From: an uncultured Gemmatimonadota bacterium
GTDB lineage: Bacteria > JAAXHH01
Direction of reading: 5' to 3'
DNA: 64,000 nucleotides
Assembly: GCA_951812955.1 (NCBI GenBank)
Contig: OX638340.1
Span: 2,432,001-2,496,000, forward strand
Position 1 is the first letter of the stretch; the number at the start of each line of letters is the position of its first letter. The position numbers and the translations under genes were made by a program. This document shows positions 2,897 to 57,185 of the stretch, one piece after another. The notes beneath the pieces are model-generated. The model was not told where the DNA came from and did not search any database. It saw only the letters and a program-made list of their open reading frames with translations.

Positions 2897-4057
2897 ATGA
2901 TGGCAGATTTTTACATTCCTCAAGCGCAACTCACCACACTCGCCCACCTGGTTACACCGGGCAAAGTCGTTGTGGTATACGGACCCAGAAGGGTGGGCAA
3001 GACCACGCTGATCAAGCGTTACATGCGAGAACACGACCCCGACGCCCTGCTCGTAACGGGGGAGGACATCGTGGTCAGGGAGTACCTCGAGAGTCAGTCC
3101 CTGGCCAAATTGACGTCCTTCGTCGGCCGTCGCCGTACACTGATCATCGACGAAGCTCAGCATATCCGGCAAATCGGGCTGAATCTCAAGCTGATCGCCG
3201 ACCACGTCGAAGGGCTTAAGATCATCACCACAGGCTCGTCCTCCTTCGACCTGGCCAATCAGACTGGCGAGCCCCTGACCGGCCGCAAGTATACCCTGCT
3301 GCTTCTGCCACTGGCCCAGTTGGAACTCCAGGAAACCGAATCCGCGCACCAGACACGAGCCCATCTCGAACTTCGGATGATTTACGGGTCGTATCCCGAA
3401 GTCGTCCTCATGGAGTCAAACGAAGACCGGCAACTCTATATCAAGGAACTGATCGCTTCCTATCTATTCAGGGACATACTCCAGCTGGAGGGCATACGCC
3501 ATGCGGACAAGCTGCTCAGGCTGCTGCAACTGGTCGCCTTCCAGATCGGACGCGAGGTATCGACTTCCGAACTGGGCACCCAGTTGGGCATGAAAGCGAA
3601 CACCGTGGATCGATATCTAGACTTACTTGAGAAATCCTATATCCTATACAGCCGCCGCGGGTTCAGCCGCAATCTGCGTAAGGAAATAACCAAGAGCCGA
3701 CGGTATTACTTCTACGACAACGGCATCAGGAACGGGTTGATCAACAACTTCAACCCACTTGCAATGCGGGATGACGCGGGGGAGTTGTGGGAAAGCTACA
3801 TCCTGGTGGAACGATTGAAGCACAACCTCTACAACGGACACCTGGCGGAAAGCTACTTCTGGCGTACATACGATCGCCAGGAAATCGACCTAGTTGAGGA
3901 GTGGGGAGGTCAACTACTTGCCACGGAAATGAAATGGACCGCCAGATCACACCGGGCGCCCGGCGCCTGGCGCAAGGCCTATCCCGAAAGTTCGTTCCAG
4001 GTTGTTCATCCTGAAAACTATCTCAGTTTTATTTCTGAATCACCGGCCGCACCCTAA
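2897..4057 (+). CDS. AAA-superfamily ATPase with C-terminal DUF4143 domain (COG1373-like)
   Basis: Walker A GPRRVGKTT, Walker B LIIDEAQ. The C-terminal region is typical of the ATPase+DUF4143 family. The start is placed at MMADF (2897) after an AT-rich promoter-like stretch. Confidence 0.7.
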   Translation: MMADFYIPQAQLTTLAHLVTPGKVVVVYGPRRVGKTTLIKRYMREHDPDALLVTGEDIVVREYLESQSLAKLTSFVGRRRTLIIDEAQHIRQIGLNLKLIADHVEGLKIITTGSSSFDLANQTGEPLTGRKYTLLLLPLAQLELQETESAHQTRAHLELRMIYGSYPEVVLMESNEDRQLYIKELIASYLFRDILQLEGIRHADKLLRLLQLVAFQIGREVSTSELGTQLGMKANTVDRYLDLLEKSYILYSRRGFSRNLRKEITKSRRYYFYDNGIRNGLINNFNPLAMRDDAGELWESYILVERLKHNLYNGHLAESYFWRTYDRQEIDLVEEWGGQLLATEMKWTARSHRAPGAWRKAYPESSFQVVHPENYLSFISESPAAP

Positions 4058-4796: not shown

Positions 4797-5429
4797 GTGT
4801 TTTCAATGAGCAGTATGGCCGCTAAAATCATGCGTCGGGTGTCCGCTCATCCCACCGGAAAGTGGGTTTGTACACCGAAGGATTTCCTGGACTTCGGGAG
4901 CAGGGAGGCCATTGACCAGGCTCTGTCGCGCCTGGCCAGATCCGATCGGCTGCGGCGCATAGGCCACGGCCTCTATGACAGGCCCAGGTTCAGCAACGTA
5001 CTGAGACGTCCTGCGCCGGTTGATCTGGATGCTGCAGTTAGCGCACTGGCAAGGAGGGACGGCGTTCAGATCCTGCCGGATGGCATGGCCTCTGCGAATC
5101 AGTTGGGACTCACGAACGCCGTACCGGCCAAAGTCAGCTTCGTAACAGATGGCTACTCCAGGACACTTAAAATTGAAGGAAGGACGGTCCGTTTTCGACA
5201 TGCGAGCCCGAGCGTTATGAAATGGGCCGGAAGACCGTCAGCTTCGGTGGTTCAGGCGTTGCGATGGCTTGGTCCCGCCGCGGCCGAGGACGCACGGGTC
5301 CTGTCGACCTTGAGCCGAACCCTCTCGGAAGAAGTGAAGGTCGATTTATTAAGAAACATACGCGATCTGCCGGGATGGGTATTGCCGCTGTTGCGAGAAA
5401 TAACCACTGAACATCACGACGCAATATGA
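4797..5429 (+). CDS. abiEi: AbiEi-family antitoxin/transcriptional regulator (type IV TA)
   Basis: The N-terminal region (…AIDQALSRLARSDRLRRIGHGLYDRP…) resembles AbiEi wHTH antitoxins. It is followed 7 nt later by an AbiEii-like ORF. Confidence 0.55.
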   Translation: MFSMSSMAAKIMRRVSAHPTGKWVCTPKDFLDFGSREAIDQALSRLARSDRLRRIGHGLYDRPRFSNVLRRPAPVDLDAAVSALARRDGVQILPDGMASANQLGLTNAVPAKVSFVTDGYSRTLKIEGRTVRFRHASPSVMKWAGRPSASVVQALRWLGPAAAEDARVLSTLSRTLSEEVKVDLLRNIRDLPGWVLPLLREITTEHHDAI

Positions 5430-5436
5430 AAATGGA

Positions 5437-6174
5437 TTGCGTATCTTTCCTCTCCCTTCCTGTCCAGGACAGACGGGACCTCTTCGAGTCAGCGGCAAAC
5501 TGAAAACCGCACTTTCGAGACGAATCGACGAGATCGTCGAAGGAGGTCTTGTCATTCCAGATGAAAGCGACGTCGACGGCCAGACGCTTCTCGTGGAGTA
5601 CCCTACACTTTACCCTGGAGACAGTGTCGCCTACGTGGCGCCACGGGTACGAATCGAGGCAGGGGCGAGATCGGCGCTGGATCCCAACCTGACCCGTACC
5701 ATCAAACCATTCATCGCGGATGAGGTGCGAGACTTGTCTTTGGCAGTGGAAAACATCCGCGTTATCGCACCAGATCGCACGCTCTGGGAGAAGCTGTTGA
5801 TCCTGCATGGGTTGTACTGCGGATATCGGGACGCACAGCGTCTACCGGCAGACAGAGATCGGATATCCCGCCACTACTACGATGTTGCCATGATAACGGA
5901 GACCGAGTCCGGCAGGGCCGCTCTATCCAACCTTGAATTGATGGATTCAGTTCGTAAACACAACCTTATTGCGTTTCGACAGGCCTGGAAGAAGTTCGAA
6001 GAGGCCGTACCTGGACGGGTGAAACTGGTTCCTCAGTTGGAACTGCACATGCTGATCGAGCGGGACTATGAAGCCATGCAGGACATGATCCTGGGTGACG
6101 TCCCGAATTTCAGATGGATCGTGGACCAATTGATGCATGCCGAAGCCATTGTCAATGGAACTACGAGAAGTTAA
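5437..6174 (+). CDS. abiEii: AbiEii/AbiGii-family nucleotidyltransferase toxin (DUF1814), TTG start, possibly N-terminally degenerate
   Basis: …IRVIAPDRTLWEKLLILHG… and …RHYYDVAMI… are typical DUF1814 C-terminal motifs. The ORF begins with TTG. The canonical N-terminal GGTAL-type motif is not obvious (GKLKTAL instead). Confidence 0.55.
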   Translation: MRIFPLPSCPGQTGPLRVSGKLKTALSRRIDEIVEGGLVIPDESDVDGQTLLVEYPTLYPGDSVAYVAPRVRIEAGARSALDPNLTRTIKPFIADEVRDLSLAVENIRVIAPDRTLWEKLLILHGLYCGYRDAQRLPADRDRISRHYYDVAMITETESGRAALSNLELMDSVRKHNLIAFRQAWKKFEEAVPGRVKLVPQLELHMLIERDYEAMQDMILGDVPNFRWIVDQLMHAEAIVNGTTRS

Positions 6175-44236: not shown

Positions 44237-45289
44237 TCAATCGGCGGAGGACAGCTGCCTGAGCGCGGAGGTCATCACTTCGACGGACCGGAGATACTCG
44301 TCCAGTACGATGTGCTCGTCCGGCGTATGGTCCAGTCTTGAGTCTCCCGGACCGTAGGCCGCGATCGGGCACCCCCATGCCGGGCCGAGGATGCACATGT
44401 CCGACGTGCCCGTCTTCTTCTTGAAGGTGGGCCGGCCCCCAGCCTGCCGGATGGCCCGCAACAGCGAACGGATCATCGGGGTGTTCTTCGGCGCGACGAT
44501 TCCTACCAGCCGCCGGTCGCATTCGATCTCCGCGGGACCCGCCTGTTCCTTCACGAAGCCGATCAGGCCGTCTATGTCGTATTCCGGCGGCACGCGCATC
44601 GAGAAATAGGCGTCCACGCCTTCGGCCAATCCATGGTCGTAGGTATTGAATCGCCGCATTTCGAGCCGGGGAGACTCGAATTCGCTTTCGGTGGCGTGGG
44701 ATGCTGCGCGGGACCGCAGAGCGTTGTAAAGATCTACGGCCCGGTCCCCCGCCCGCCGATGGTCGCCGGCGTGATGGGCGTTGGGCTGTTCGAGCCGGTA
44801 GTCGAAACCTACGAAACCCTTGTACCCGATGGTGATGCTGTCCCAGCCGCTCGGCTCGCCGATGAATACGTAGCCCGGCCGCATGCGGTCCACCAGGTGG
44901 AAGGCGCCCTTCGACGTGGGGCACTCCTCTTCCACGGCGCCGACCAGGGTGATCCGGCCGTTTTCGAGTTCCGTCAAACGGGAAAGGGCGGCGGCGAAGG
45001 CGGCCAGTGGGCCCTTGGCGTCCACGGCGCCCCGGCCGTATAGGCGGCCGCTTTCTTCGCGTATCGGAACGACGCCCGGTACGGTGTCGATATGCCCGAC
45101 CAGTGCGATATGCGGTTCGCCGCGGCCGACTTCGCCCACGGCGTTTCCCGCCTCGTCCACGTGGGCACGGATCCCCCTCCGTTCCATCCACTCGATCAGG
45201 TAGGAGACCGCCTCGCTCTCCTGCGTTGAGGGACTGAACCGCTCGATAAGGCCCCGCAGCAGCGCGACGTCGTCGCGGGCGTCGCTCAT
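44237..45289 (-). CDS. lysK: M20-family hydrolase, [LysW]-lysine/ornithine hydrolase (LysK/ArgE-like)
   Basis: ATG at 45289..45287 overlapping the lysJ stop (ATGA). 350 aa. M20 metal ligands in …ALVGHIDTVP…GRGAVDAKG… The longer 566-aa track ORF is an upstream out-of-context extension. Confidence 0.7.
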   Translation of the reverse strand: MSDARDDVALLRGLIERFSPSTQESEAVSYLIEWMERRGIRAHVDEAGNAVGEVGRGEPHIALVGHIDTVPGVVPIREESGRLYGRGAVDAKGPLAAFAAALSRLTELENGRITLVGAVEEECPTSKGAFHLVDRMRPGYVFIGEPSGWDSITIGYKGFVGFDYRLEQPNAHHAGDHRRAGDRAVDLYNALRSRAASHATESEFESPRLEMRRFNTYDHGLAEGVDAYFSMRVPPEYDIDGLIGFVKEQAGPAEIECDRRLVGIVAPKNTPMIRSLLRAIRQAGGRPTFKKKTGTSDMCILGPAWGCPIAAYGPGDSRLDHTPDEHIVLDEYLRSVEVMTSALRQLSSAD

Positions 45290-46554
45290 TTCCCCTCCCG
45301 GGCCGCGGTTCGGCCGCGGCCGGCGCGACGCCGATCCCGGCTGTTTCCTTCCCCGCGTCCCGGGCCGGACCGGCCGGACGACGGGTTTTCTCCAAGGGCG
45401 TCCAGTGCTTCGTGCGTTGCCGCCACAACCTGGTCGATTTCCTCCGTGGAGATCGACAGCGGCGGCAGGAACCGCAGCACGGTATTGCCCGCGGGCAGGG
45501 CTAGTACACCCCGTTCCATGAGCCCGCGCAGTACGGGCGTGACCCGGCTCTTCAGCTCGACGCCGATGATCAGGCCCATGCCCCGTATCTCCCGTACGGC
45601 GGGGTGGGCCAACGCCGCGAGGCCTTCCCGGAAATACCCGCCGGCCTCCCTGGCGTTCTCGACAAGGCCTTCCTCGTCCAGCACACGCAGAGTCGCCAGC
45701 CCCGCCGCGCAGATCACCGGGCTGCCGCCGAAGGTGTTTCCGTGGGACATGGACGGGACGCCCTGGACCGCGTCCCCGCAGAGCGCCGCGCCGACGGGGA
45801 GCCCTCCGGCCATGGCCTTGGCCAGGCAGAGGATGTCCGGCCGTATACCGTGGTGCTCGCAGGCAAACATGGCGCCCGTTCTGCCGAACCCGGTCTGCAC
45901 CTCGTCCACGATGAACAAAGCGCCCCGTTCCCTGCAAAGGGCCTCTACCCGCTTCAGGTACCCACCGTCGGCCACACGCACGCCGCCCTCTCCCTGCACG
46001 ACCTCGAGGATGACCGCGGCGGTCTCCTCGCCGATGGCTTCTTCCATGGCGGCGGGATCATTGTATCTGACGTGGGAGAATCCGGGCACGAGGGGTTCAA
46101 AGGGGGCGCGATACTTGGGGTTCCACGTCGCGCTCAATGCGCCGAAGGTGCGTCCGTGGAATCCGCGCTGGGCCGCGATCACGCCGGTTTTTCCCGTGAC
46201 GGCCCGGGCGAATTTCAACGCCGCTTCCACCGCCTCCGTACCGGAGTTGCACAGGAACAGCCGGTCGAGCCCCGCCGGGGCCGCCTCGACCAGGGCCGCG
46301 CCCAGTTCCGCACGCACATCGTTGTAGAAGGAGTCCGGGCATATCGTGAGGCGGTTCACCTGCCGCGTGACCGCTTCGGCCACGGCCGGGTGGCTGTGGC
46401 CAATGTTGGCCGTGCCGATCCCGCCGATGCAGTCGATGTATTCCTTACCGGCGGCGTCCCATACACGCGTGCCGCGGCCGCGGACGATCACCGCGTCGCG
46501 TTTCGGCAGGATGCCCATGGAAACGCCATTTTCCATTGTCTGGTAGTCTGTCAT
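45286..46554 (-). CDS. lysJ: Class III PLP aminotransferase, acetylornithine/[LysW]-aminoadipate semialdehyde aminotransferase (LysJ/ArgD)
   Basis: …LCNSGTEAVEAALKFAR…IVDEVQTGFGRTG…, with the PLP-lysine context in …LCLAKAMAGGLPVGA…. Confidence 0.85.
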   Translation of the reverse strand: MTDYQTMENGVSMGILPKRDAVIVRGRGTRVWDAAGKEYIDCIGGIGTANIGHSHPAVAEAVTRQVNRLTICPDSFYNDVRAELGAALVEAAPAGLDRLFLCNSGTEAVEAALKFARAVTGKTGVIAAQRGFHGRTFGALSATWNPKYRAPFEPLVPGFSHVRYNDPAAMEEAIGEETAAVILEVVQGEGGVRVADGGYLKRVEALCRERGALFIVDEVQTGFGRTGAMFACEHHGIRPDILCLAKAMAGGLPVGAALCGDAVQGVPSMSHGNTFGGSPVICAAGLATLRVLDEEGLVENAREAGGYFREGLAALAHPAVREIRGMGLIIGVELKSRVTPVLRGLMERGVLALPAGNTVLRFLPPLSISTEEIDQVVAATHEALDALGENPSSGRSGPGRGEGNSRDRRRAGRGRTAAREGK

Positions 46555-46576
46555 GTTCCCCGTACTCCTGTTTTCG

Positions 46577-47374
46577 TTACCCGATTACCGTGCCCTGTCC
46601 ACGCAGCGCAGCCGTGACGGGTCCGGGTATCCTCCCGTCGCCCAGGATCACCTTTCCCACCCCGACTTCCAGCGCCTCTTTCGCGCCGAGCAGCTTCTTC
46701 TTCATGCGGTCCCGGGCGTGGGTCGCGATCGCCTCGTCTATGTCCTCACGGGCGAGGCGGGGGATCAGCGTGTCTTCGTCCTCGGCGTCCTCGAGGAATC
46801 CAGGCGTGTTGGAAAGGATGACCAGCCTGTCCGCCCCGAGGGCGTCGGCGATCACGGCGGCCGCCCGGTCGCCGTCCACGTTGATGATCTCCCCCTCGTA
46901 GCTGATGGCCGGCGGCGTGATGACCGGCAGGTAACCCTGGTCCAGCAATGAGGTCAGCAGCGGTACGTTCGCCTTCTCGACCCGGCCTGTGTAATCGTTT
47001 CTCAGGACCTTCTTCCGGCCGTCCTCCACGATCCGGAGGGTGGGTTTCCGCCTGCCCTCGAGGAGGCGACCGTCGACCCCGCTCAGTCCTACGGCGTTGG
47101 CGCCGAGCTGCTGCAGTTTCTCCACGATGCGCTTGTTTCGCTTGCCGCAATACACCATGTTGAAGATATCCAGCGTCTCCGGATCGGTATATCGGCTCGT
47201 GTACCCGGAGGGCGACGTGACCATGCGGGGCGGCTTGCCCAGTTGTGTCGATACGGTGTTCAATTCGTCGGAACCGCCGTGCACCAGCACCAGCGGTTCG
47301 GTCTGCCGCGCGATGTCCTCCAGTACGTAGTCCAGGTTGATGCCCCTGCTGCCTCCGGTCTTCACCACGATCAT
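46577..47374 (-). CDS. lysZ: Short amino-acid-kinase-family carboxylate kinase, [LysW]-aminoadipate/glutamate kinase (LysZ/ArgB)
   Basis: MIVVKTGGSRG… begins the AAK fold. At 265 aa it is the short archaeal/Thermus-type kinase. Its start overlaps the hisS stop by 4 nt. Confidence 0.7.
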   Translation of the reverse strand: MIVVKTGGSRGINLDYVLEDIARQTEPLVLVHGGSDELNTVSTQLGKPPRMVTSPSGYTSRYTDPETLDIFNMVYCGKRNKRIVEKLQQLGANAVGLSGVDGRLLEGRRKPTLRIVEDGRKKVLRNDYTGRVEKANVPLLTSLLDQGYLPVITPPAISYEGEIINVDGDRAAAVIADALGADRLVILSNTPGFLEDAEDEDTLIPRLAREDIDEAIATHARDRMKKKLLGAKEALEVGVGKVILGDGRIPGPVTAALRGQGTVIG

Positions 47375-48636
47375 GCCGTGCCGCCTCCCTTAACCGCGTC
47401 CAGCACCTCCCACCTGGGAAGGGCCGTCTGCGTACTGTCCGCCATGCGCCGTACCATGACGACGCCGTTTTTCACCTCTTCTTCGCCGATGATCAGGGTG
47501 TATGCGGCACCGATCCGGTCGGCCTGCTTCATCTGGGCCTTCAGGCTGCGGTCCTCCCACAGGGCCGCCGCGCCCACGCCGGCCGAGCGAAGTTCCTGTG
47601 CCAGGACCACGGCGGCGTCCTTGGCCTCGGCGCCGAGATAGGCAACGAACACGGCAGGTTTCGGCACTTCCGGGGGTTCGATCCCCTCCTGCTTCATCGT
47701 GAGGATGATGCGCTCTATGCCCGACGCGAAGCCGATAGCCGGCGTTTCGGGTCCGCCCACCATTCCGATCAGTCCGTCGTACCGCCCGCCCCCGCACACC
47801 GCGTTCTGCGCGCCGATGCCCTCTGCCCAGACCTCGAACACCGTCTTCGTATAGTAGTCGAGTCCCCGCACCATGCGGTGGTTGACCTCGTAAGGGCGGC
47901 CCAGGGCGTCCAGGTACGACCTCAGCTGGACGAAGTGGTCATTGCATGCACCGCACAGGGATTTCGCGATCCGCGGCGCCCCCTCCGCTATCTTCCCGCA
48001 GGATTCCCGCTTGCAATCCAGAAGCCGCAGCGGGTTCTCGCCATAGCGGCGCCGGCAATCATCGCAGATCCCGTCCAGGTGCTGTTCGTACCAAGCCTTC
48101 AGCGTAGCGATGTATCCAGGCCGGCAAGCGGGACACCCCGTACTGTTCACCTGGAAGGACAGCCCCTTGATGCCGACGGCTTCGTAGATCTGCCAGGCGA
48201 CCTGCATCACCTCGAGGTCGATGGCCGGGTCCTGGCTGCCCAGTACCTCCACGTCGACCTGGTAGAACTGGCGGTATCTTCCCGCCTGCGGACGTTCGTA
48301 CCGGAAAGCCGGACCGATCGTATAGAGTCTCAGGGGCTGGGGCCTGCCATGGAGCTTGCGCTCGGCGTAGGCTCGGCAGATCCCCGCCGTGAATTCGGGC
48401 CGCAGCGTCATGCGCTCGTCACTCCGGTCGCGGAAGGTGTACATCTCCTTCTCCACGATGTCCGTGGTCTCGCCGACGCCCCGCTCGAAGAGGCCGGTCT
48501 GCTCGAAGACGGGCACGTCGATCCGCTCGTAGCCGTACAGTTCGCAGACCTGCCGGGTCATCTCGGTCACGAACCGCCAGTAGGCCTGGTCCTCCGGCAG
48601 GATGTCGTAGGTGCCTCTCGGTGCCTGGAATTTCAT
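47371..48636 (-). CDS. hisS: Histidine--tRNA ligase
   Basis: MKFQAPRGTYDILPEDQAYWRFVTE… class II aaRS motifs. Embedded between lysY and lysZ on the same strand. Confidence 0.85.
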   Translation of the reverse strand: MKFQAPRGTYDILPEDQAYWRFVTEMTRQVCELYGYERIDVPVFEQTGLFERGVGETTDIVEKEMYTFRDRSDERMTLRPEFTAGICRAYAERKLHGRPQPLRLYTIGPAFRYERPQAGRYRQFYQVDVEVLGSQDPAIDLEVMQVAWQIYEAVGIKGLSFQVNSTGCPACRPGYIATLKAWYEQHLDGICDDCRRRYGENPLRLLDCKRESCGKIAEGAPRIAKSLCGACNDHFVQLRSYLDALGRPYEVNHRMVRGLDYYTKTVFEVWAEGIGAQNAVCGGGRYDGLIGMVGGPETPAIGFASGIERIILTMKQEGIEPPEVPKPAVFVAYLGAEAKDAAVVLAQELRSAGVGAAALWEDRSLKAQMKQADRIGAAYTLIIGEEEVKNGVVMVRRMADSTQTALPRWEVLDAVKGGGTA

Positions 48637-48668
48637 TTTGGTCTTCCTATACCGGTCTATACCGGTTC

Positions 48669-49712
48669 CTATACCGGATGCAGGCCCGGAAACTCGAGGC
48701 CCGTCCGTTCGTCCCACCCGTACATGATGTTGAGCGCCTGAACGGCCTGGCCGGCCGCGCCCTTGACCAGGTTGTCCAGCGCCCCCATGACCACGACGCG
48801 GTCGCTGTGCTCGTCCCGTTCGAACCCGACGTCGCAGAAGTTGGTGCCCGACAGGAACTTCGGATCGGGATAGCGGAACACGCCCTGCCGCTCCTTGATG
48901 ATGCGGATGAAGGGCTCCCGTCCATAGGCCTCCCGGTAGATACTCCAGATTTCCCGTTCTGACAGGCCGTCGTTCACGAAGGCGTGGGTCGTCATCAGGA
49001 TGCCGCGCACCAGTTCGATGGCCGTCGCGGAGAAATGGACCTGCGGCGCCTGTCCCCCGAAAGTCAGTTCCTGCACGATCTCTGCCGTATGGCGATGACC
49101 CGTAGGCTTGAAAGAGCGCACCGCGCCGCTTCGGTCGGGGTGGTGGGTGGACCGGTCGGCCCGGTTACCGGCAGCGGAGGACCCGATCTTGCCCTCCATG
49201 TAGAGACGCGAGGGGTCCACCGCGCCAGCCCGCACCAGGGGCGCCAGCGACAGGATCGCCGTGGCGGCCAGGCAACCGGTGCACGCGACGTGCTCGGCGT
49301 CCCGTATCTCGTCACGGTACAGTTCGGCCAGGCCGTACACGAAGCGGTCCAGCATCTCCGGGTGCGCGTGCTCGTGCCCGTACCACGTGGGATAGTCCGC
49401 CGCGTTCCGCAGGCGGAAGTCCGCGCTCAGGTCGATGATGCGGCCGCCCAGGCCCGAAAAGGCGTCCCATCGTTTCATGGCCTCCCCGTGGGGCAGGCAC
49501 AGGCACAATACGTCGCAGGGCTCCAGGTCGGCCATGGCGCTGAATTTCAGGTCCGTGACTCTGCGGAGGTTGGGATGGGCGCGTCCGACGGGCTTGCCGG
49601 CCTGCGATTCCGACGTCACCTGATGGATTTCTATTTCGGGGTGGAAGAGCAGCAGCCGAAGCAGTTCGCCGCCGCCGTACCCGGACGCTCCTGCGATCGA
49701 CACCTTGATCAT
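48669..49712 (-). CDS. lysY: N-acetyl-gamma-glutamyl-phosphate / [LysW]-aminoadipyl-phosphate reductase (LysY/ArgC)
   Basis: [21 protein letters not shown] Rossmann motif. Active-site Cys in …[12 protein letters not shown]…. Confidence 0.8.
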
Positions 49713-50548
49713 GATCGGGCCACCTTTACCAGGTAGTCTATGATGCGCCCGGGAATGTCCACACCCGTTGGCCGGACGCTGTTACGGAATTCCATGGTGT
49801 AGTTCACCTCGTTGACCAGGATCCCCTCGGGAGATTCAAGCAGGTCGACCGCCACCACGCCGCCGCCCACCGCTTCCGCCGCGCGGGAGGACAGCGTCCC
49901 CACGTCCCCGTCGATGGGACAGTCCGCGGTCGTTCCCCCCAGGGCTGTGTTGGTCTTCCAGTGATCCGAATAGCGGTAGACGGCGCAGATGGTTTCGCCG
50001 TCGACCACGAAGGACCGGATATCCCGCCCGGGCTTCTCCACGTACTCCTGGATATAGAACACGGAGTGGTGATAGGACCCCAGGACCTCCTTGTGCTCCA
50101 GCACCGCTTCCGCCGCGTGGCGGTCGTTGATGCGGGCGATCAGCCGTCCCCACGATCCGATGGGCGGCTTGAGTACGACGGGGTAACCCATGGTTTCCAT
50201 CACCTCCAGCGCCGCTTCCGCCGTGAAGGCCACGCGCGCCTTCGGCGTCGGTACGCCGTGATCCACCAGCGCCATGGTCGTCAGGAACTTGTTCCCGCAC
50301 ACGCGGGCCACGTCGTAGGTGTTAACCGTCCTGATACCGCTGGCGTTCAGCATCTTGAGCGAGTAGAGCGCCCTGGAGTGGTTGACGCACCGCTCCAGGA
50401 TGACGTCGTGGTCGTACCGGTGGTTCTCCAGGTCGAAGATGATGCGCCGGTCGTCCATCCGGTCGAAGGCGACGCCCCGTTTCGCAGCCGCCTCGAAGAG
50501 CATCTTCTGTTCCGTGGATACAATGGAAAGTAGCATGCCGATCTTCAC
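49709..50548 (-). CDS. lysX: RimK/LysX-family ATP-grasp ligase (LysX or ArgX), paralog 2
   Basis: GTG at 50548..50546 overlapping the upstream stop (GTGA); alternatively the ATG at 50536. [26 protein letters not shown]… ATP-grasp RimK-like motifs. The 510-aa track ORF is an upstream extension. Confidence 0.7.
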
Positions 50549-51399
50549 GATGCCCTGCCTCCCTTCGTCACCGTATCCGCTACGTAGTCCATGATTTTGC
50601 CCGGTATATTGACCCCGGTGGCGTCCGACGCGTCGGAAAGGCCGGACGGCGGGCCCATCTCCTGCACGTACCAGGCGTCCTTCGTGCGGACCATGTCCAC
50701 CACCGCGACGCCGCCGCCAATGGCCTCGACGGCAGAGACCGCCAGGCCGTTCAACTCCTCCGTTACGGGTTCGTTCTCCATCAGGCCGCCGGCGGCGATG
50801 GTCCCGATCCAGTGATGGGTCAGCACCGACACGGCGGCCACCGTCTCGCCACCCACCACGTACGCCCGTATGTCGTGACCAGGCGCATCGATATGTTTCT
50901 GCATGAAGAAGATGGAATGGTGATAAGCGCCGAGTATGCGTTTGTGCTCCAGGACCGTCGCCGCCGTATACTTGTCTCCTATGCGGGAAACGAGCTGGTC
51001 CTCGGGGCCCTCCGCGGGTCTCAATACGACCGGGTATCCCATGTCTTCCATTGCCTTGAGCGCCGAGTCCGGCGTATAGGCCAGGCGCATGTCCGGAACC
51101 GGGACGCCCCTCTCCCGCAACGCCAGGGTCGTCAGCAGCCGGTTTCCGTAGGTCTCCACCACGGACTGCCGATTCACCGTGGGTATGCCCCAGTGGTCGA
51201 ACACGGAGAGCGCGTATACGGCCCGGTGGTGATCGACGCACCGTTCCAGGACCACGTCCAGGTCCATGTGCCGGCGGTCGAGTTCGAAGACCTGCCGGGA
51301 ATTGTCGATCGTCGTCACGTCGAAACCGCGCAGACCCGCTTCGGCGATCAGCCGCTTTTCGTCCTTTCGGATCCGAGACAGCACAATGCCCATTTCCAT
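50545..51399 (-). CDS. RimK/LysX-family ATP-grasp ligase (LysX or ArgX), paralog 1
   Basis: [28 protein letters not shown]… Same fold and length (284 aa) as paralog 2, clearly related but diverged. Confidence 0.7.
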
Positions 51400-51430
51400 G
51401 GTTCCCGCACCTTCTTCCTGGTCATGCCAT

Positions 51431-51481
51431 ACAAAAAAAGGAGCCGGCCTCTTCGCTCAATCGGAAGAGGAACCTGGCTCC
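51431..51481 (-). terminator. Strong intrinsic terminator/attenuator between lysW and the first lysX paralog
   Basis: The minus-strand RNA folds as GGAGCCAGGUUCCUCUUC-CGAUUGAGC-GAAGAGGCCGGCUCC (about 15 bp GC-rich stem) followed by UUUUUUU. It lies 30 nt upstream of the lysX-paralog start codon. Confidence 0.55.
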
Positions 51482-51641
51482 TGTCAGTTCCCTTGGTCCG
51501 GTTATGCCCCGTAGGGGATCAACACGGACCGCGATGAGCGAACGAACGCAAATCACAATCATGGTATCCATGTTTATGTTTCATTCGTTTATTCATCGCC
51601 GTTTCCTGTTCTCGTTTGAACCCGCAATGCGGGTGAGGGGC

Positions 51642-51806
51642 CTATTCTCCCCAGTCTTCTTCTTCTTCCGGCGCCAACTCCAATTCCAGCGGACTGACGC
51701 TGATTACCTCGAGCTCCGCGCCGCATTCTTCACACTCCAGGATTTCGCCTTCAACGACATCATCGTCCACGTTGACAGCGGCGCCACACTCCGGGCAGGT
51801 TCCCAT
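51642..51806 (-). CDS. lysW: Amino-group carrier protein LysW
   Basis: MGTCPECGAAVNVDDDVVEGEILECEECGAELEVISVSPLELELAPEEEEDWGE is 54 aa. It has a CxxC-N17-CxxC zinc ribbon and the acidic EDWGE C-terminus that is the conjugation site in LysW proteins. Confidence 0.8.
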   Translation of the reverse strand: MGTCPECGAAVNVDDDVVEGEILECEECGAELEVISVSPLELELAPEEEEDWGE

Positions 51807-51940
51807 GATATCCCCCGAATTACCTGGACATAGCCCAGTACTGAAACCCATTCCAGGGTCCTTTTACCCCATCGGGAAGGGCCCCGGTCCATGCTGGAAC
51901 GGTCGAAATATATGGCGCGGTTAAACCGTGTCAAGCGCTT

Positions 51941-54439
51941 TTATGAAGGATTTTCGTCCGTCTCCCCGGTGGATTCGTCCGCTGCGGCCGACGCCGATTC
52001 GTCATCTTCCTCGCCGGGCGTAATCCTGGACACGTCGATCACCCGGTCCCCCTCGTCGAGGTTGATGAGCCGGACACCCTGGGTATTCCGGCCGATGGGT
52101 CGCAGGTCGCGGACAGGCAGGCGTATGATGAGGCCTTTCGTGGTGATAATCATCAGTTCGTCTTCGTCGGAGACGGCGTGAATCGACACGACGGGACCGT
52201 TGCGTTCGCTGGTGCGTATGTTGCTCACGCCCTTGCTGTGCCGGCGGGTCAGCCGGTAGCTCGCGATGTCCGTCCGCTTACCGTAGCCGTTTTCCGTCAC
52301 GGAAAGCAGCGTGGTGTCCCGTCCGGACGCCAGCATGCCCACGACCCGGTCGTCTTCGCCGAGGCGAATGCCACGCACTCCCTGTGCGCCGCGGCCCATC
52401 GTCCGGACATCGCTCTCGTGAAAACGGACGGCCTGGCCATTCCGGCTGGCGATGACGATGTCGTTGCCTCCATCGGTAAGCAGGGCCTCGATGAGGGCGT
52501 CGCCCTCGAGGATGTTCAGTGCAACGATGCCGTTCCGGCGGGGATTCCCATAAGCGGAAAGAACGGTCTTCTTCACGAGACCACCCCGCGTAACCATCAT
52601 GATGTAGTGGTCGTCGTCGAACGTCCTGATCGGCAGGAAGGCCGCAATACTCTCGCCCTGGCCGAGCTGCAGCAGGTTGACCACGGCCTTGCCACGGGCC
52701 GTGCGTCCGGCTTCGGGGATCTCCCACACCTTGAGCCAGTAACACTTACCTCGGTTCGTGAAGAACAGGATATAGGAATGGGTCGAGGCGGAGAAGAGGT
52801 GCTCCACGAAGTCCTCTTCACGGGTCTTCATGCCGGTGATCCCCTTGCCGCCGCGGTTCTGGCTGCGATAGGTGTCCATGGGCAGGCGCTTGACGTAGCC
52901 GGCGTGGGAGATGGTGATGACCATTTCCTCGTCGGCGATCAGGTCCTCGATGCTGAGATCGCCTTCGATGTCGATCAACTCGGTCCGTCTTTCATCGCCG
53001 TAGCGTTCCTTCAGGTCGAGCATCTCTTCCTTGATGATCTGCATCCGGCGATCCAGGCGTGAGAGGATATCCCGGAAATCGGCGATCCGGGCGACCAGTT
53101 CGTTGTATTCTTCCTCGAGCTTGTCCCTTTCCAGTCCGGTCAGGCGCTGCAGGCGCATGTCCAGGATGGCCTCGACCTGGGCACGGGACAGTCCGAACTC
53201 GTCCACCAGGATCTCCATGGCCTCCTCGCCGGTACGCGACCCGCGGAGGATTTCGATCACGCGGTCCACGTTGTCCAGCGCGATGCGCAGACCTTCCACG
53301 ATGTGGGCCCGTTGCTCGGCCTTCTCGAGGTCGAAGGTGGTCCGGCGCACCAGCACCTCGTGACGGTGGTCGATGAAGTGCTGAATGCATTCCTTGATGT
53401 TCAGGACGCGGGGACGTCCGTCCACGAGCGCCAGCATGGTGACGCCGATGGTGGTCTCGAGCGACGTCATCTTGAAGAGGTGGTTCAGTACGATTGTGCC
53501 CGGGATATCCCGCCGCACGTCGATGGCGATGCGCAGACCCGACCGGTCGGACTCGTCCCGTATATCGGTAATGCCCAGTATCTGCTTTTCACGGACGAGG
53601 TCGGCGATCTTCTCGATCAGGCTGGCCTTGTTGACCTTGTACGGGATTTCCGTGATGACGATGGTTTCCTTCTCGCTTTGCTCATGAAGCTCGATCTCCG
53701 TGCGGGCGCGCACCTTGATCTTGCCGCGGCCGGTGTGGAAATACTCTTTAATCGCGTTGCGGCCGTATATGATCGCGCCGGTGGCAAGATCGGGACCCTG
53801 GATGTGTCCGGCGATCTCATCGATCGTGATTTCCGGGTTCTCGATCACCGCCACCATCCCATCCACCACCTCGCTGAGGTTATGGGAAGGCAGGTTGGAT
53901 GCCATGCCCACGCCAATACCGAGCGACCCGTTGCAAAGCAGGTTGGGGAACTTGCCCGGAAGCACCGTCGGCTCGTCTTTCGACTCGTCGTAGTTGGGCA
54001 TGAAATCGACGGTGTTCTTGTCGATATCCTCCATCATCTCGATGGCCAGGCGGGACATCCTCGATTCGGTGTACCGCATGGCGCCCGGGGGATCGCCGTC
54101 TATGGAACCGAAATTCCCCTGTCCGAAGACCATGGGGTAACGCATGCTGAACGGCTGGGCCATCCGCGCGAGGGTGTCGTATACGGCCAGGTCTCCGTGG
54201 GGATGGTAATCACCGATCGTCTGGCCGACGATCTTGGCGCATTTCCGCGTGGGCCGTCCCGGTGTGAGGTTCAGGTCGCGCATCGCCACGAGTATGCGTC
54301 GCTGGGACGGTTTGAACCCGTCGCGGACGTCCGGAATCGCCCGTGACAGATTCACACTCATGGAGAAGTCGAGATAGGAACTCTTCATCTCGTCTTCGAT
54401 GAAGATGGGCTGAATATTGTCGTGTTGTTCTACCGCCAT
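51941..54439 (-). CDS. gyrA: DNA gyrase subunit A
   Basis: …LSRAIPDVRDGFKPSQRRILVAMRDL…AMRYTESRMS (active-site Tyr context). 832 aa. Confidence 0.95.
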   Translation of the reverse strand: MAVEQHDNIQPIFIEDEMKSSYLDFSMSVNLSRAIPDVRDGFKPSQRRILVAMRDLNLTPGRPTRKCAKIVGQTIGDYHPHGDLAVYDTLARMAQPFSMRYPMVFGQGNFGSIDGDPPGAMRYTESRMSRLAIEMMEDIDKNTVDFMPNYDESKDEPTVLPGKFPNLLCNGSLGIGVGMASNLPSHNLSEVVDGMVAVIENPEITIDEIAGHIQGPDLATGAIIYGRNAIKEYFHTGRGKIKVRARTEIELHEQSEKETIVITEIPYKVNKASLIEKIADLVREKQILGITDIRDESDRSGLRIAIDVRRDIPGTIVLNHLFKMTSLETTIGVTMLALVDGRPRVLNIKECIQHFIDHRHEVLVRRTTFDLEKAEQRAHIVEGLRIALDNVDRVIEILRGSRTGEEAMEILVDEFGLSRAQVEAILDMRLQRLTGLERDKLEEEYNELVARIADFRDILSRLDRRMQIIKEEMLDLKERYGDERRTELIDIEGDLSIEDLIADEEMVITISHAGYVKRLPMDTYRSQNRGGKGITGMKTREEDFVEHLFSASTHSYILFFTNRGKCYWLKVWEIPEAGRTARGKAVVNLLQLGQGESIAAFLPIRTFDDDHYIMMVTRGGLVKKTVLSAYGNPRRNGIVALNILEGDALIEALLTDGGNDIVIASRNGQAVRFHESDVRTMGRGAQGVRGIRLGEDDRVVGMLASGRDTTLLSVTENGYGKRTDIASYRLTRRHSKGVSNIRTSERNGPVVSIHAVSDEDELMIITTKGLIIRLPVRDLRPIGRNTQGVRLINLDEGDRVIDVSRITPGEEDDESASAAADESTGETDENPS

Positions 54440-54495
54440 GCTTTCCCCTTGAACTTGTTATCCCGCGTTCCGGGCGTGCCAGGCAAGCGCCGGTA

Positions 54496-57185
<2,690 letters not shown>

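Follow-up and report, generated by a model that had tools for sequence, protein, structure and literature searches.

A Probable Leader-Peptide Attenuator Between lysW and the Enzyme Genes of an Uncultured Bacterial Clade

In a LysW-type operon, the spacer that separates lysW from the enzyme genes probably carries a leader-peptide transcription attenuator, a ribosome-mediated switch sited between genes of the operon. The operon lies on the minus strand of the window, the whole 64,000-nucleotide stretch of DNA that was analyzed. Among sponge MAGs and marine metagenomes of an uncultured clade, we counted 35 distinct orthologous loci that have the element, in two divergent subfamilies. The enzymes and an embedded histidyl-tRNA synthetase (HisRS) would most likely be switched on only at a shortage of Lys, His or Arg. 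The mechanism class is known; new here are the intercistronic site behind a carrier gene, the mixed basic codons, a hairpin carrying the stop codon and a candidate antiterminator that targets the terminator loop.

To collect related loci, species-representative genomes were scanned with ligase 1, the first gene behind the terminator. This gave 20 MAGs, several of them sponge-derived, with 85-100% protein identity; their labels read Gemmatimonadetes or Latescibacterota. Look-ups of distant homologues and one metagenome scan extended the set to clade members down to 58% identity and to 68 outgroup loci (39-48%). Subfamily 1, the window's own, comprises 27 distinct sequences (the 20 species-level MAGs plus metagenome contigs) with ligases 75-100% identical. 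Subfamily 2 comprises eight sequences from deep-sea metagenomes, their ligases being 68-72% identical. The spacer between lysW and the ligase gene is 165-322 nt long in the clade versus a median of 5 nt in the outgroup (range -4 to 166, n = 43 loci with lysW before lysX). No convincing K-rich leader ORF was found in the 68 outgroup lysW/lysX loci. By this comparison the putative attenuator is a clade-specific insertion.

Along the minus strand, gyrB (56874..54496) and gyrA (54439..51941) are followed by a promoter, lysW, a 242-nt spacer and two ATP-grasp ligase genes. Behind the ligases come lysY/argC, hisS, lysZ and lysJ, with the operon ending at 45286. The operon promoter is a sigma-70-like site, TTGACA-16 nt-TATATT (51934..51907, minus strand), that matches the consensus at 11 of 12 positions. 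It lies directly 3' of the gyrA stop codon and was the sole promoter-like site in a scan of the minus strand from 45000 to 57000. Its elements CTTGACAC and ATATATT, spaced by 15-16 nt, are invariant in 20 orthologous loci and stand between variable flanks. The lysW gene (51806..51642, minus strand) encodes an amino-group carrier protein of 54 aa with the C-terminus EDWGE; it matches the Pfam profile PF21344 (Zn_ribbon_LysW, 1.4e-20) and TIGR01206 (score 66.2 against a cut-off of 53.2). The 5' UTR of lysW, about 95 nt within the region 51807-51934 of the minus strand, contains a conserved hairpin of the type GGCCUUCC-CGG-AAGGG..GAAAGGACC, which is deleted in three loci (L015, L023 and L027).

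The gene directly behind the terminator encodes an ATP-grasp ligase of the LysX/RimK family by Pfam (ligase 1, 51399..50545, minus strand). Its NCBIfam score of 235.7 is below the LysX equivalog cut-off of 275.6, so it may be a glutamate-specific, ArgX-type enzyme of a dual Lys/Arg LysW pathway. Ligase 2 (50548..49709, minus strand) scores 338.2, above the same cut-off, and is a LysX. Between lysY/argC and lysZ, 32 nt past lysY, the operon encodes a full-length histidyl-tRNA synthetase, hisS (47371-48636, minus strand; TIGR00442 score 491.9, cut-off 286.75). Wherever a clade locus is long enough to tell, hisS is inside the operon (36 of 36); in the outgroup this is so in none of 68 loci, which makes its recruitment into a biosynthetic operon a marker of the clade. 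In some distant clade members the spacer between lysY and hisS is about 190 nt long (L028:4122-4309, L029:6741-6937, L036:~5230-5480). These long spacers share a conserved hairpin motif, GCGAAUGGG...CCCRUUCGYAUCCAURGG, with small ORFs overlapping it, the one in L028 being Arg-rich (MNKQRRRQRMGRGRG...). No Rfam match was found in the lysY-hisS spacer, which may hold a second regulatory element ahead of hisS.

The whole lysW-ligase spacer of the window folds with -99.3 kcal/mol (z = -4.7), and none of 200 shuffles was as stable. The fold consists of four hairpins: a small one after lysW, hairpins A and B, and the terminator hairpin T. Hairpin A, formed by segments 1 and 2, spans 69 nt (51599..51531, minus strand; -28.2 kcal/mol, z = -5.6) and hairpin B follows at once (51530..51495, minus strand; -19.1 kcal/mol, z = -3.3). 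Next comes a linker, AAGGGAAC (51494..51487, minus strand), complementary to GUUCCU of the terminator 5' arm, with which it could form a helper helix (P3). Every one of the 27 subfamily-1 sequences retains hairpins A and B, the terminator, the U-run and the linker GGGAAC (one locus deviates in it). The regions upstream of the Shine-Dalgarno (SD) motif and downstream of the U-run are poorly conserved and variable in length. Hairpin B has two-sided, compensatory changes at 5 of its 14 pairs across the family. Hairpins A and T are almost invariant, and their pairing is neither supported nor contradicted by variation: the main helix of A is paired in 93.7% of cells over the 27 sequences, with almost no variation, and the stem of T in 94.6%. 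Searches of the whole window and five related loci against Rfam at gathering thresholds gave no match. At E <= 10, the region 51300-52100 gave only two chance snoRNA matches and no lysine riboswitch, T-box or His leader. The element belongs to no described Rfam family, be it His_leader, the Thr, Leu, Trp or Phe leaders, the lysine riboswitch or the T-box.

The small hairpin, CCCGCAUUGCGGG (51621..51633, minus strand; -9.3 kcal/mol, z = -3.8), stands right after the lysW stop codon. In the alignment, read by eye, its stem varies in sequence among loci and keeps its self-complementarity. It is an accessory feature, deleted in L013, L016, L018 and L023, and may be a stabilizer of the mRNA 3' end or a weak terminator.

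The first-pass annotation of this DNA had described a GC-rich hairpin of about 15 bp with a run of seven U residues between lysW and the ligase genes, and a 25-codon ORF with a good SD sequence before it. Both were borne out, at the positions and on the strand that it gave. The intrinsic terminator has a bipartite GC-rich stem of 16 pairs (51481..51440) followed by U7 (51439..51433) on the minus strand, with -25.4 kcal/mol and z = -3.5; one of 200 shuffles was as stable. It begins 160 nt past the lysW stop codon, and 33 nt separate the end of the U-run from the ligase ATG at 51399. A simple terminator scan missed it because its loop is longer than the scanner's 8-nt limit. This loop, CGAUUGAGCGAA (51463..51452), has nearly invariant bases in subfamily 1, a constraint that a plain terminator does not impose. 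We detected no promoter-like site in the 33 nt between the terminator and the ligase gene; with so short a distance and no such site, the downstream genes must be reached by read-through. In four loci, L010 (~2930-3000), L015, L018 and L023, two or three tandem units of about 19 nt lie between the terminator and the ligase ATG. Their sequence is ACGCGGGATATCCGAAAGG, or GCGGGCGAC in L023, and they lengthen the lysW-ligase spacer to 265-289 nt; the window is without them.

The leader ORF has 25 codons and a TGA stop (51596..51519, minus strand) and would encode the peptide MNKRMKHKHGYHDCDLRSFAHRGPC. Its SD sequence, AGGAAA (51607..51602, minus strand), ends 5 nt upstream of the ATG. A purine-rich GGA motif (GGAAA, GGAUA, GGAAG) stands 5-9 nt before the ATG in 25 of the 27 subfamily-1 loci, with varying neighboring bases; L027 and L031 have GAGAGA in its place. 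The ATG, the frame, the length of 25 codons and the stop column (TGA, TAA or TAG) are kept in all 27 sequences. Not one has an indel in the ORF, versus indels in the flanking hairpin B loop, linker and T loop. Four loci (L020, L022, L028 and L113) have an in-frame N-terminal extension of two codons. In the eight subfamily-2 sequences, the ATG, frame, length and stop position are likewise kept, along with an SD site. The ORF is thus conserved in orthologous loci of both subfamilies free of frameshifts, a test that the first-pass annotation had named for its attenuator proposal. This conservation and the rare codons of the ORF are indirect signs that the leader is translated. The leader ATG and codons 1-22 lie within hairpin A, and the last four codons and the stop codon in the 5' arm of hairpin B, two features absent from the first-pass annotation. 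Hairpin A is unusually stable (-28 kcal/mol) and occludes the ATG, which counts against the model: initiation would have to be co-transcriptional or coupled to termination at lysW.

We also examined the codons of the leader. In the window it has three Lys, four His and three Arg codons among its 25, including the block AAA CAT AAA CAT (51581..51570) and CGA for Arg at codon 4. All its Lys and His codons are the rare synonyms in nine neighboring genes, where AAA accounts for 19% of the codons for Lys and CAT for 22% of those for His; CGA makes up 5% of the Arg codons there. The consensus peptide of subfamily 1 is M[SN]KR[MIV]KHKH[GER]xH[DG]CDL[RLS][SL][SF][AV][HRQ][RH]xPx. Within it, codons K3, R4, K6, H7, K8, H9 and H12 have only synonymous changes. 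Over the whole leader, 15 of 39 variant alleles are synonymous versus 21% expected for random single changes. No other copy of the core AAACATAAACAT was found within the window. The Lys and His codons are few (three or four of each), alternate and form no runs, which counts against an attenuator.

Most of the RNA sequence of subfamily 2 departs from that of subfamily 1. Its ORF is enclosed by a long hairpin; a terminator of -31 kcal/mol and a U-run follow, and the leader peptide reads M[NI]RRxxFK[HQP]KH[IA][WG]..[HR]SSV.TVH[LS]. Both subfamilies have the Lys/His core AAACATAAACAT and the Arg codons, with K-x-K-H and R4 kept. At the RNA level they share the codon for Arg at position 4, UCG-UCN-GNU at codons 18-20, and an AAA-CAU-AAA-CAU block in which four loci have Q or P for H at one position. 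These shared features argue that the two subfamilies are diverged versions of one element. The Lys/His block AAACAUAAACAU is base-paired in subfamily 1, but in subfamily 2 it is part of an internal loop and unpaired; a coding meaning is therefore the simplest reading of its conservation. The leader codons, Lys, His and Arg, match the content of the operon, which encodes Lys/Arg enzymes of the LysW route and HisRS. The attenuator would sense Lys, and probably His and Arg as well.

A leader-peptide attenuator would also be expected to have mutually exclusive terminator and antiterminator folds, and on this point of the first-pass annotation the two subfamilies differ. In subfamily 2 an antiterminator hairpin that excludes the terminator is statistically supported by modelling. 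Located immediately upstream of the terminator, it would sequester 15 nt of the terminator 5' arm; its energy is -13.6 to -14.2 kcal/mol (z = -2.9 to -3.8), a value reached by no more than 1 of 200 shuffles. The stalled, truncated RNA has this hairpin as its consensus fold. A ribosome terminating at the leader stop codon would cover the 5' strand of the hairpin, which begins 9-13 nt past that codon. We dropped a long-range helix between the antiterminator strand and a segment upstream of the SD: perfect in L033, it was not conserved in the other subfamily-2 members.

For the window's own subfamily the predicted antiterminator, helix P1, has moderate support. P1 pairs the 3' end of segment 2, UUCGCUCAUCG (51542..51532, minus strand; codons 19-22), as its 5' strand with the terminator loop (51463..51452). 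The stalled state was modelled by masking the first 33 nt of the leader and cutting the transcript after the terminator loop. Its MFE structure is a three-way junction of P1, the persisting hairpin B and P3, the latter pairing the linker with GUUCCU. With the ribosome stalled on the nascent RNA, 25 of the 27 subfamily-1 sequences have P1 in their MFE structure; it is absent from all 27 in the free RNA, where segment 2 is locked in hairpin A, and with the ribosome at the stop codon. It is also part of the RNAalifold consensus, and the best upstream partner of the terminator loop is always the 3' end of segment 2. Pairing in P1 would also account for the near-invariance of the loop. The P1 duplex has -13.8 kcal/mol, a value equalled by 28 of 1000 dinucleotide shuffles (p ~0.03). 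In a control with shuffled segment 2 sequences, 113 of 400 trials gave as many pairs with the free 5' arm and loop of the terminator as the real sequence, or more, which is not significant. We accordingly do not rest P1 on the MFE structures by themselves.

Variation in P1 and P3 consists of one-sided G-U changes, with changes of bulged bases in P1 as well; no compensatory double changes were found in either helix. GGAAC in the linker is invariant except in one locus, and the P3 pairing is kept in 88% of cells. As a stand-alone antiterminator P3 was no better than shuffles (z = -0.1) and was rejected. At full length with segment 1 masked, the terminator fold is still the thermodynamically preferred one. 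A purely thermodynamic switch was rejected as well, the terminator remaining the MFE structure with the 5' half of the leader masked; the switch would have to rely on kinetic trapping, like the trp attenuator. Taken with the conserved ORF and the lack of a detectable downstream promoter, the alternative pairings support the earlier proposal of a leader attenuator. The sequences show the anatomy and its conservation, the covariation in hairpin B, the lack of a downstream promoter and the subfamily-2 antiterminator hairpin; translation of the leader, the identity of the sensed codons, the exact antiterminator of the window's subfamily and any response to starvation are inferred.

The proposed mechanism would work as follows. 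Transcription would start at the conserved promoter upstream of lysW and then pass through the leader ORF; with the promoter upstream of lysW and the gate behind it, lysW would always be expressed. In the absence of a ribosome, hairpin A would hold segment 2 away from the terminator, and on an untranslated leader the terminator would form. With charged tRNALys (and probably tRNAHis and tRNAArg) plentiful, the ribosome would reach the stop codon, cover the 3' end of segment 2 and melt hairpin B, and the terminator would fold. Had the ribosome already left, hairpin A would re-form and the terminator would again fold, ending transcription at the U-run. At a shortage of the amino acids, the ribosome would stall within the 5' arm of hairpin A, on the codons for K-R-x-K-H-K-H, and free segment 2. 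The freed segment could then pair with the terminator loop (P1), aided by pairing of the linker with the terminator 5' arm (P3), and block the terminator. Read-through into ligase 1, ligase 2, lysY, hisS, lysZ and lysJ would follow. The net effect would be constitutive LysW, with the enzymes and HisRS made on demand. We are doubtful about a more far-reaching version, in which one leader integrates the charging of the Lys, Arg and His tRNAs and gates both the Lys/Arg enzymes and hisS while LysW stays constitutive. If true, such a "basic amino acid" attenuator would have a stoichiometry split built in. Still more unusual would be a conserved peptide (HDCDL in subfamily 1) that acts by arrest and senses a metabolite.

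Three other explanations were weighed against ribosome-mediated attenuation. The terminator sits exactly behind lysW and is the thermodynamically favored fold in every state, and a terminator-like hairpin is found in three clade members (L029, L040 and L042) that have no Lys/His ORF. It could then be a constitutive, partly leaky terminator whose sole role is a large excess of LysW, a stoichiometric carrier, over the enzymes, with the ORF incidental. We consider this unlikely, as it leaves unexplained the invariant terminator loop and the significant antiterminator hairpin of subfamily 2. Nor does it explain why two subfamilies with otherwise different RNA sequences have both kept the SD, the ATG, the frame and length of the ORF and its Lys, His and Arg codons. 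A terminator that sets the ratio of lysW to the enzymes, which the first-pass annotation had offered as an alternative, is compatible with attenuation as a second consequence of the same arrangement.

The basic 25-residue peptide might instead act itself, either as a free micro-protein or by nascent-chain arrest, sensing a metabolite in the ribosome tunnel as TnaC and the fungal arginine attenuator peptide do. The constraint on its C-terminal half is confined to one subfamily: HDCDL is kept at the amino-acid level in subfamily 1, with three of four variant alleles synonymous, but this half is unconserved in subfamily 2 (IWDNT, AWNKI and similar), and what the subfamilies have in common is the basic codon core. 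Two synonymous HDCDL alleles (L024) do break RNA pairs of hairpin A, and synonymous variants are in excess overall. Against this, the peptide-level constraint is based on very few substitutions and no gene caller annotates the ORF, and a peptide that acts itself seems improbable to us. Direct control of the terminator by a riboswitch or a protein or tRNA binding site, with the ORF untranslated, would agree with the very stable and conserved fold, the real covariation in hairpin B and the occlusion of the leader ATG by hairpin A. Conservation of frame, length and stop codon, along with in-frame extensions, would not be expected of an untranslated RNA, and nothing resembling the lysine riboswitch, the T-box, the His leader or any other Rfam family was matched at E = 10. 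The conserved bases are mostly in helices and codons, and no conserved multi-helix junction or unpaired core like a ligand pocket stands out in the RNA. Such direct control is in our view very unlikely. Ribosome-mediated attenuation therefore remains the reading that we prefer.

To our knowledge, most documented leader-peptide attenuators are from Proteobacteria, some are from Actinobacteria and Thermus, and lysine-specific ones are rare. The lysine (alpha-aminoadipate/LysW) cluster of Thermus thermophilus reportedly has a leader-peptide attenuator. Like it, the element described here has a short ORF with Lys codons and then an intrinsic terminator gating LysW-type genes, with stalling leading to read-through. 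The Thermus element stands at the 5' end of its cluster, upstream of homocitrate synthase, and gates the whole cluster, whereas here the gate is behind lysW, which escapes it. Here Lys codons are also mixed with His and Arg codons, and the comparison concerns layout and logic.

Attenuators of this class control the enterobacterial trp, his, thr, leu, ilv and pheA operons and, with the pheM leader, pheST, an aminoacyl-tRNA synthetase operon. The proposed element resembles them in the SD and short regulatory ORF, the overlapping 1:2 hairpin, a predicted alternative pairing against the terminator and the U-run. It differs in being intercistronic, in its lack of an Rfam match and in the far greater stability of hairpin A (-28 kcal/mol). 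An extra hairpin, B, carries the stop codon, the codons alternate as K-H-K-H in place of runs, and the candidate antiterminator targets the terminator loop and not the 5' arm. Leaders that sense several amino acids are known from thr (Thr, Ile) and ilv (Ile, Leu, Val). As in pheST, a synthetase gene would be under a leader with its own cognate codons, and a link of the leader His codons to hisS would be an attractive parallel. The notion that hisS is the sole explanation for these codons is weakened by L029 and L040, which have hisS without a Lys/His leader.

The B. subtilis trp attenuator lies inside the aro supraoperon and is controlled by the TRAP protein. The element in the window is likewise sited between genes, with upstream genes expressed independently of the gate, but leader-peptide translation is proposed here in place of TRAP. 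In Streptomyces, attenuators are found upstream of trpS and leuS (PMC1262725). In Sulfolobus, the Lrp-type activator LysM controls lysWXJK (PMC3597687). That operon, too, is of the LysW type with lysine-responsive control, which is proposed here; unlike the present case, its control is by an archaeal, promoter-acting transcription factor and is not known to involve an RNA switch. A paper on a "lysW" riboswitch concerns an unrelated transporter gene of the same name and was set aside.

The host lineage is uncultured and largely sponge-associated or from the deep sea. Its operon design would separate a constitutive carrier from regulated enzymes, and the leader codons mirror an operon of Lys/Arg biosynthesis and hisS, offering a compact, testable case of operon content co-evolving with leader codon content. 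Adding the element to RNA family databases could improve the annotation of these MAGs.

The basal members of the clade, L029, L040 and L042, have hisS and a terminator-bearing spacer but not the Lys/His leader. Their spacers (3798-4000 in L029) are 165-203 nt long and different in sequence, with a terminator of the form GGGGAG...CUCCCC and a U-run, and share the motifs GCGAUACGA and CCCAUCGG. These spacers may be an older or an alternative control element.
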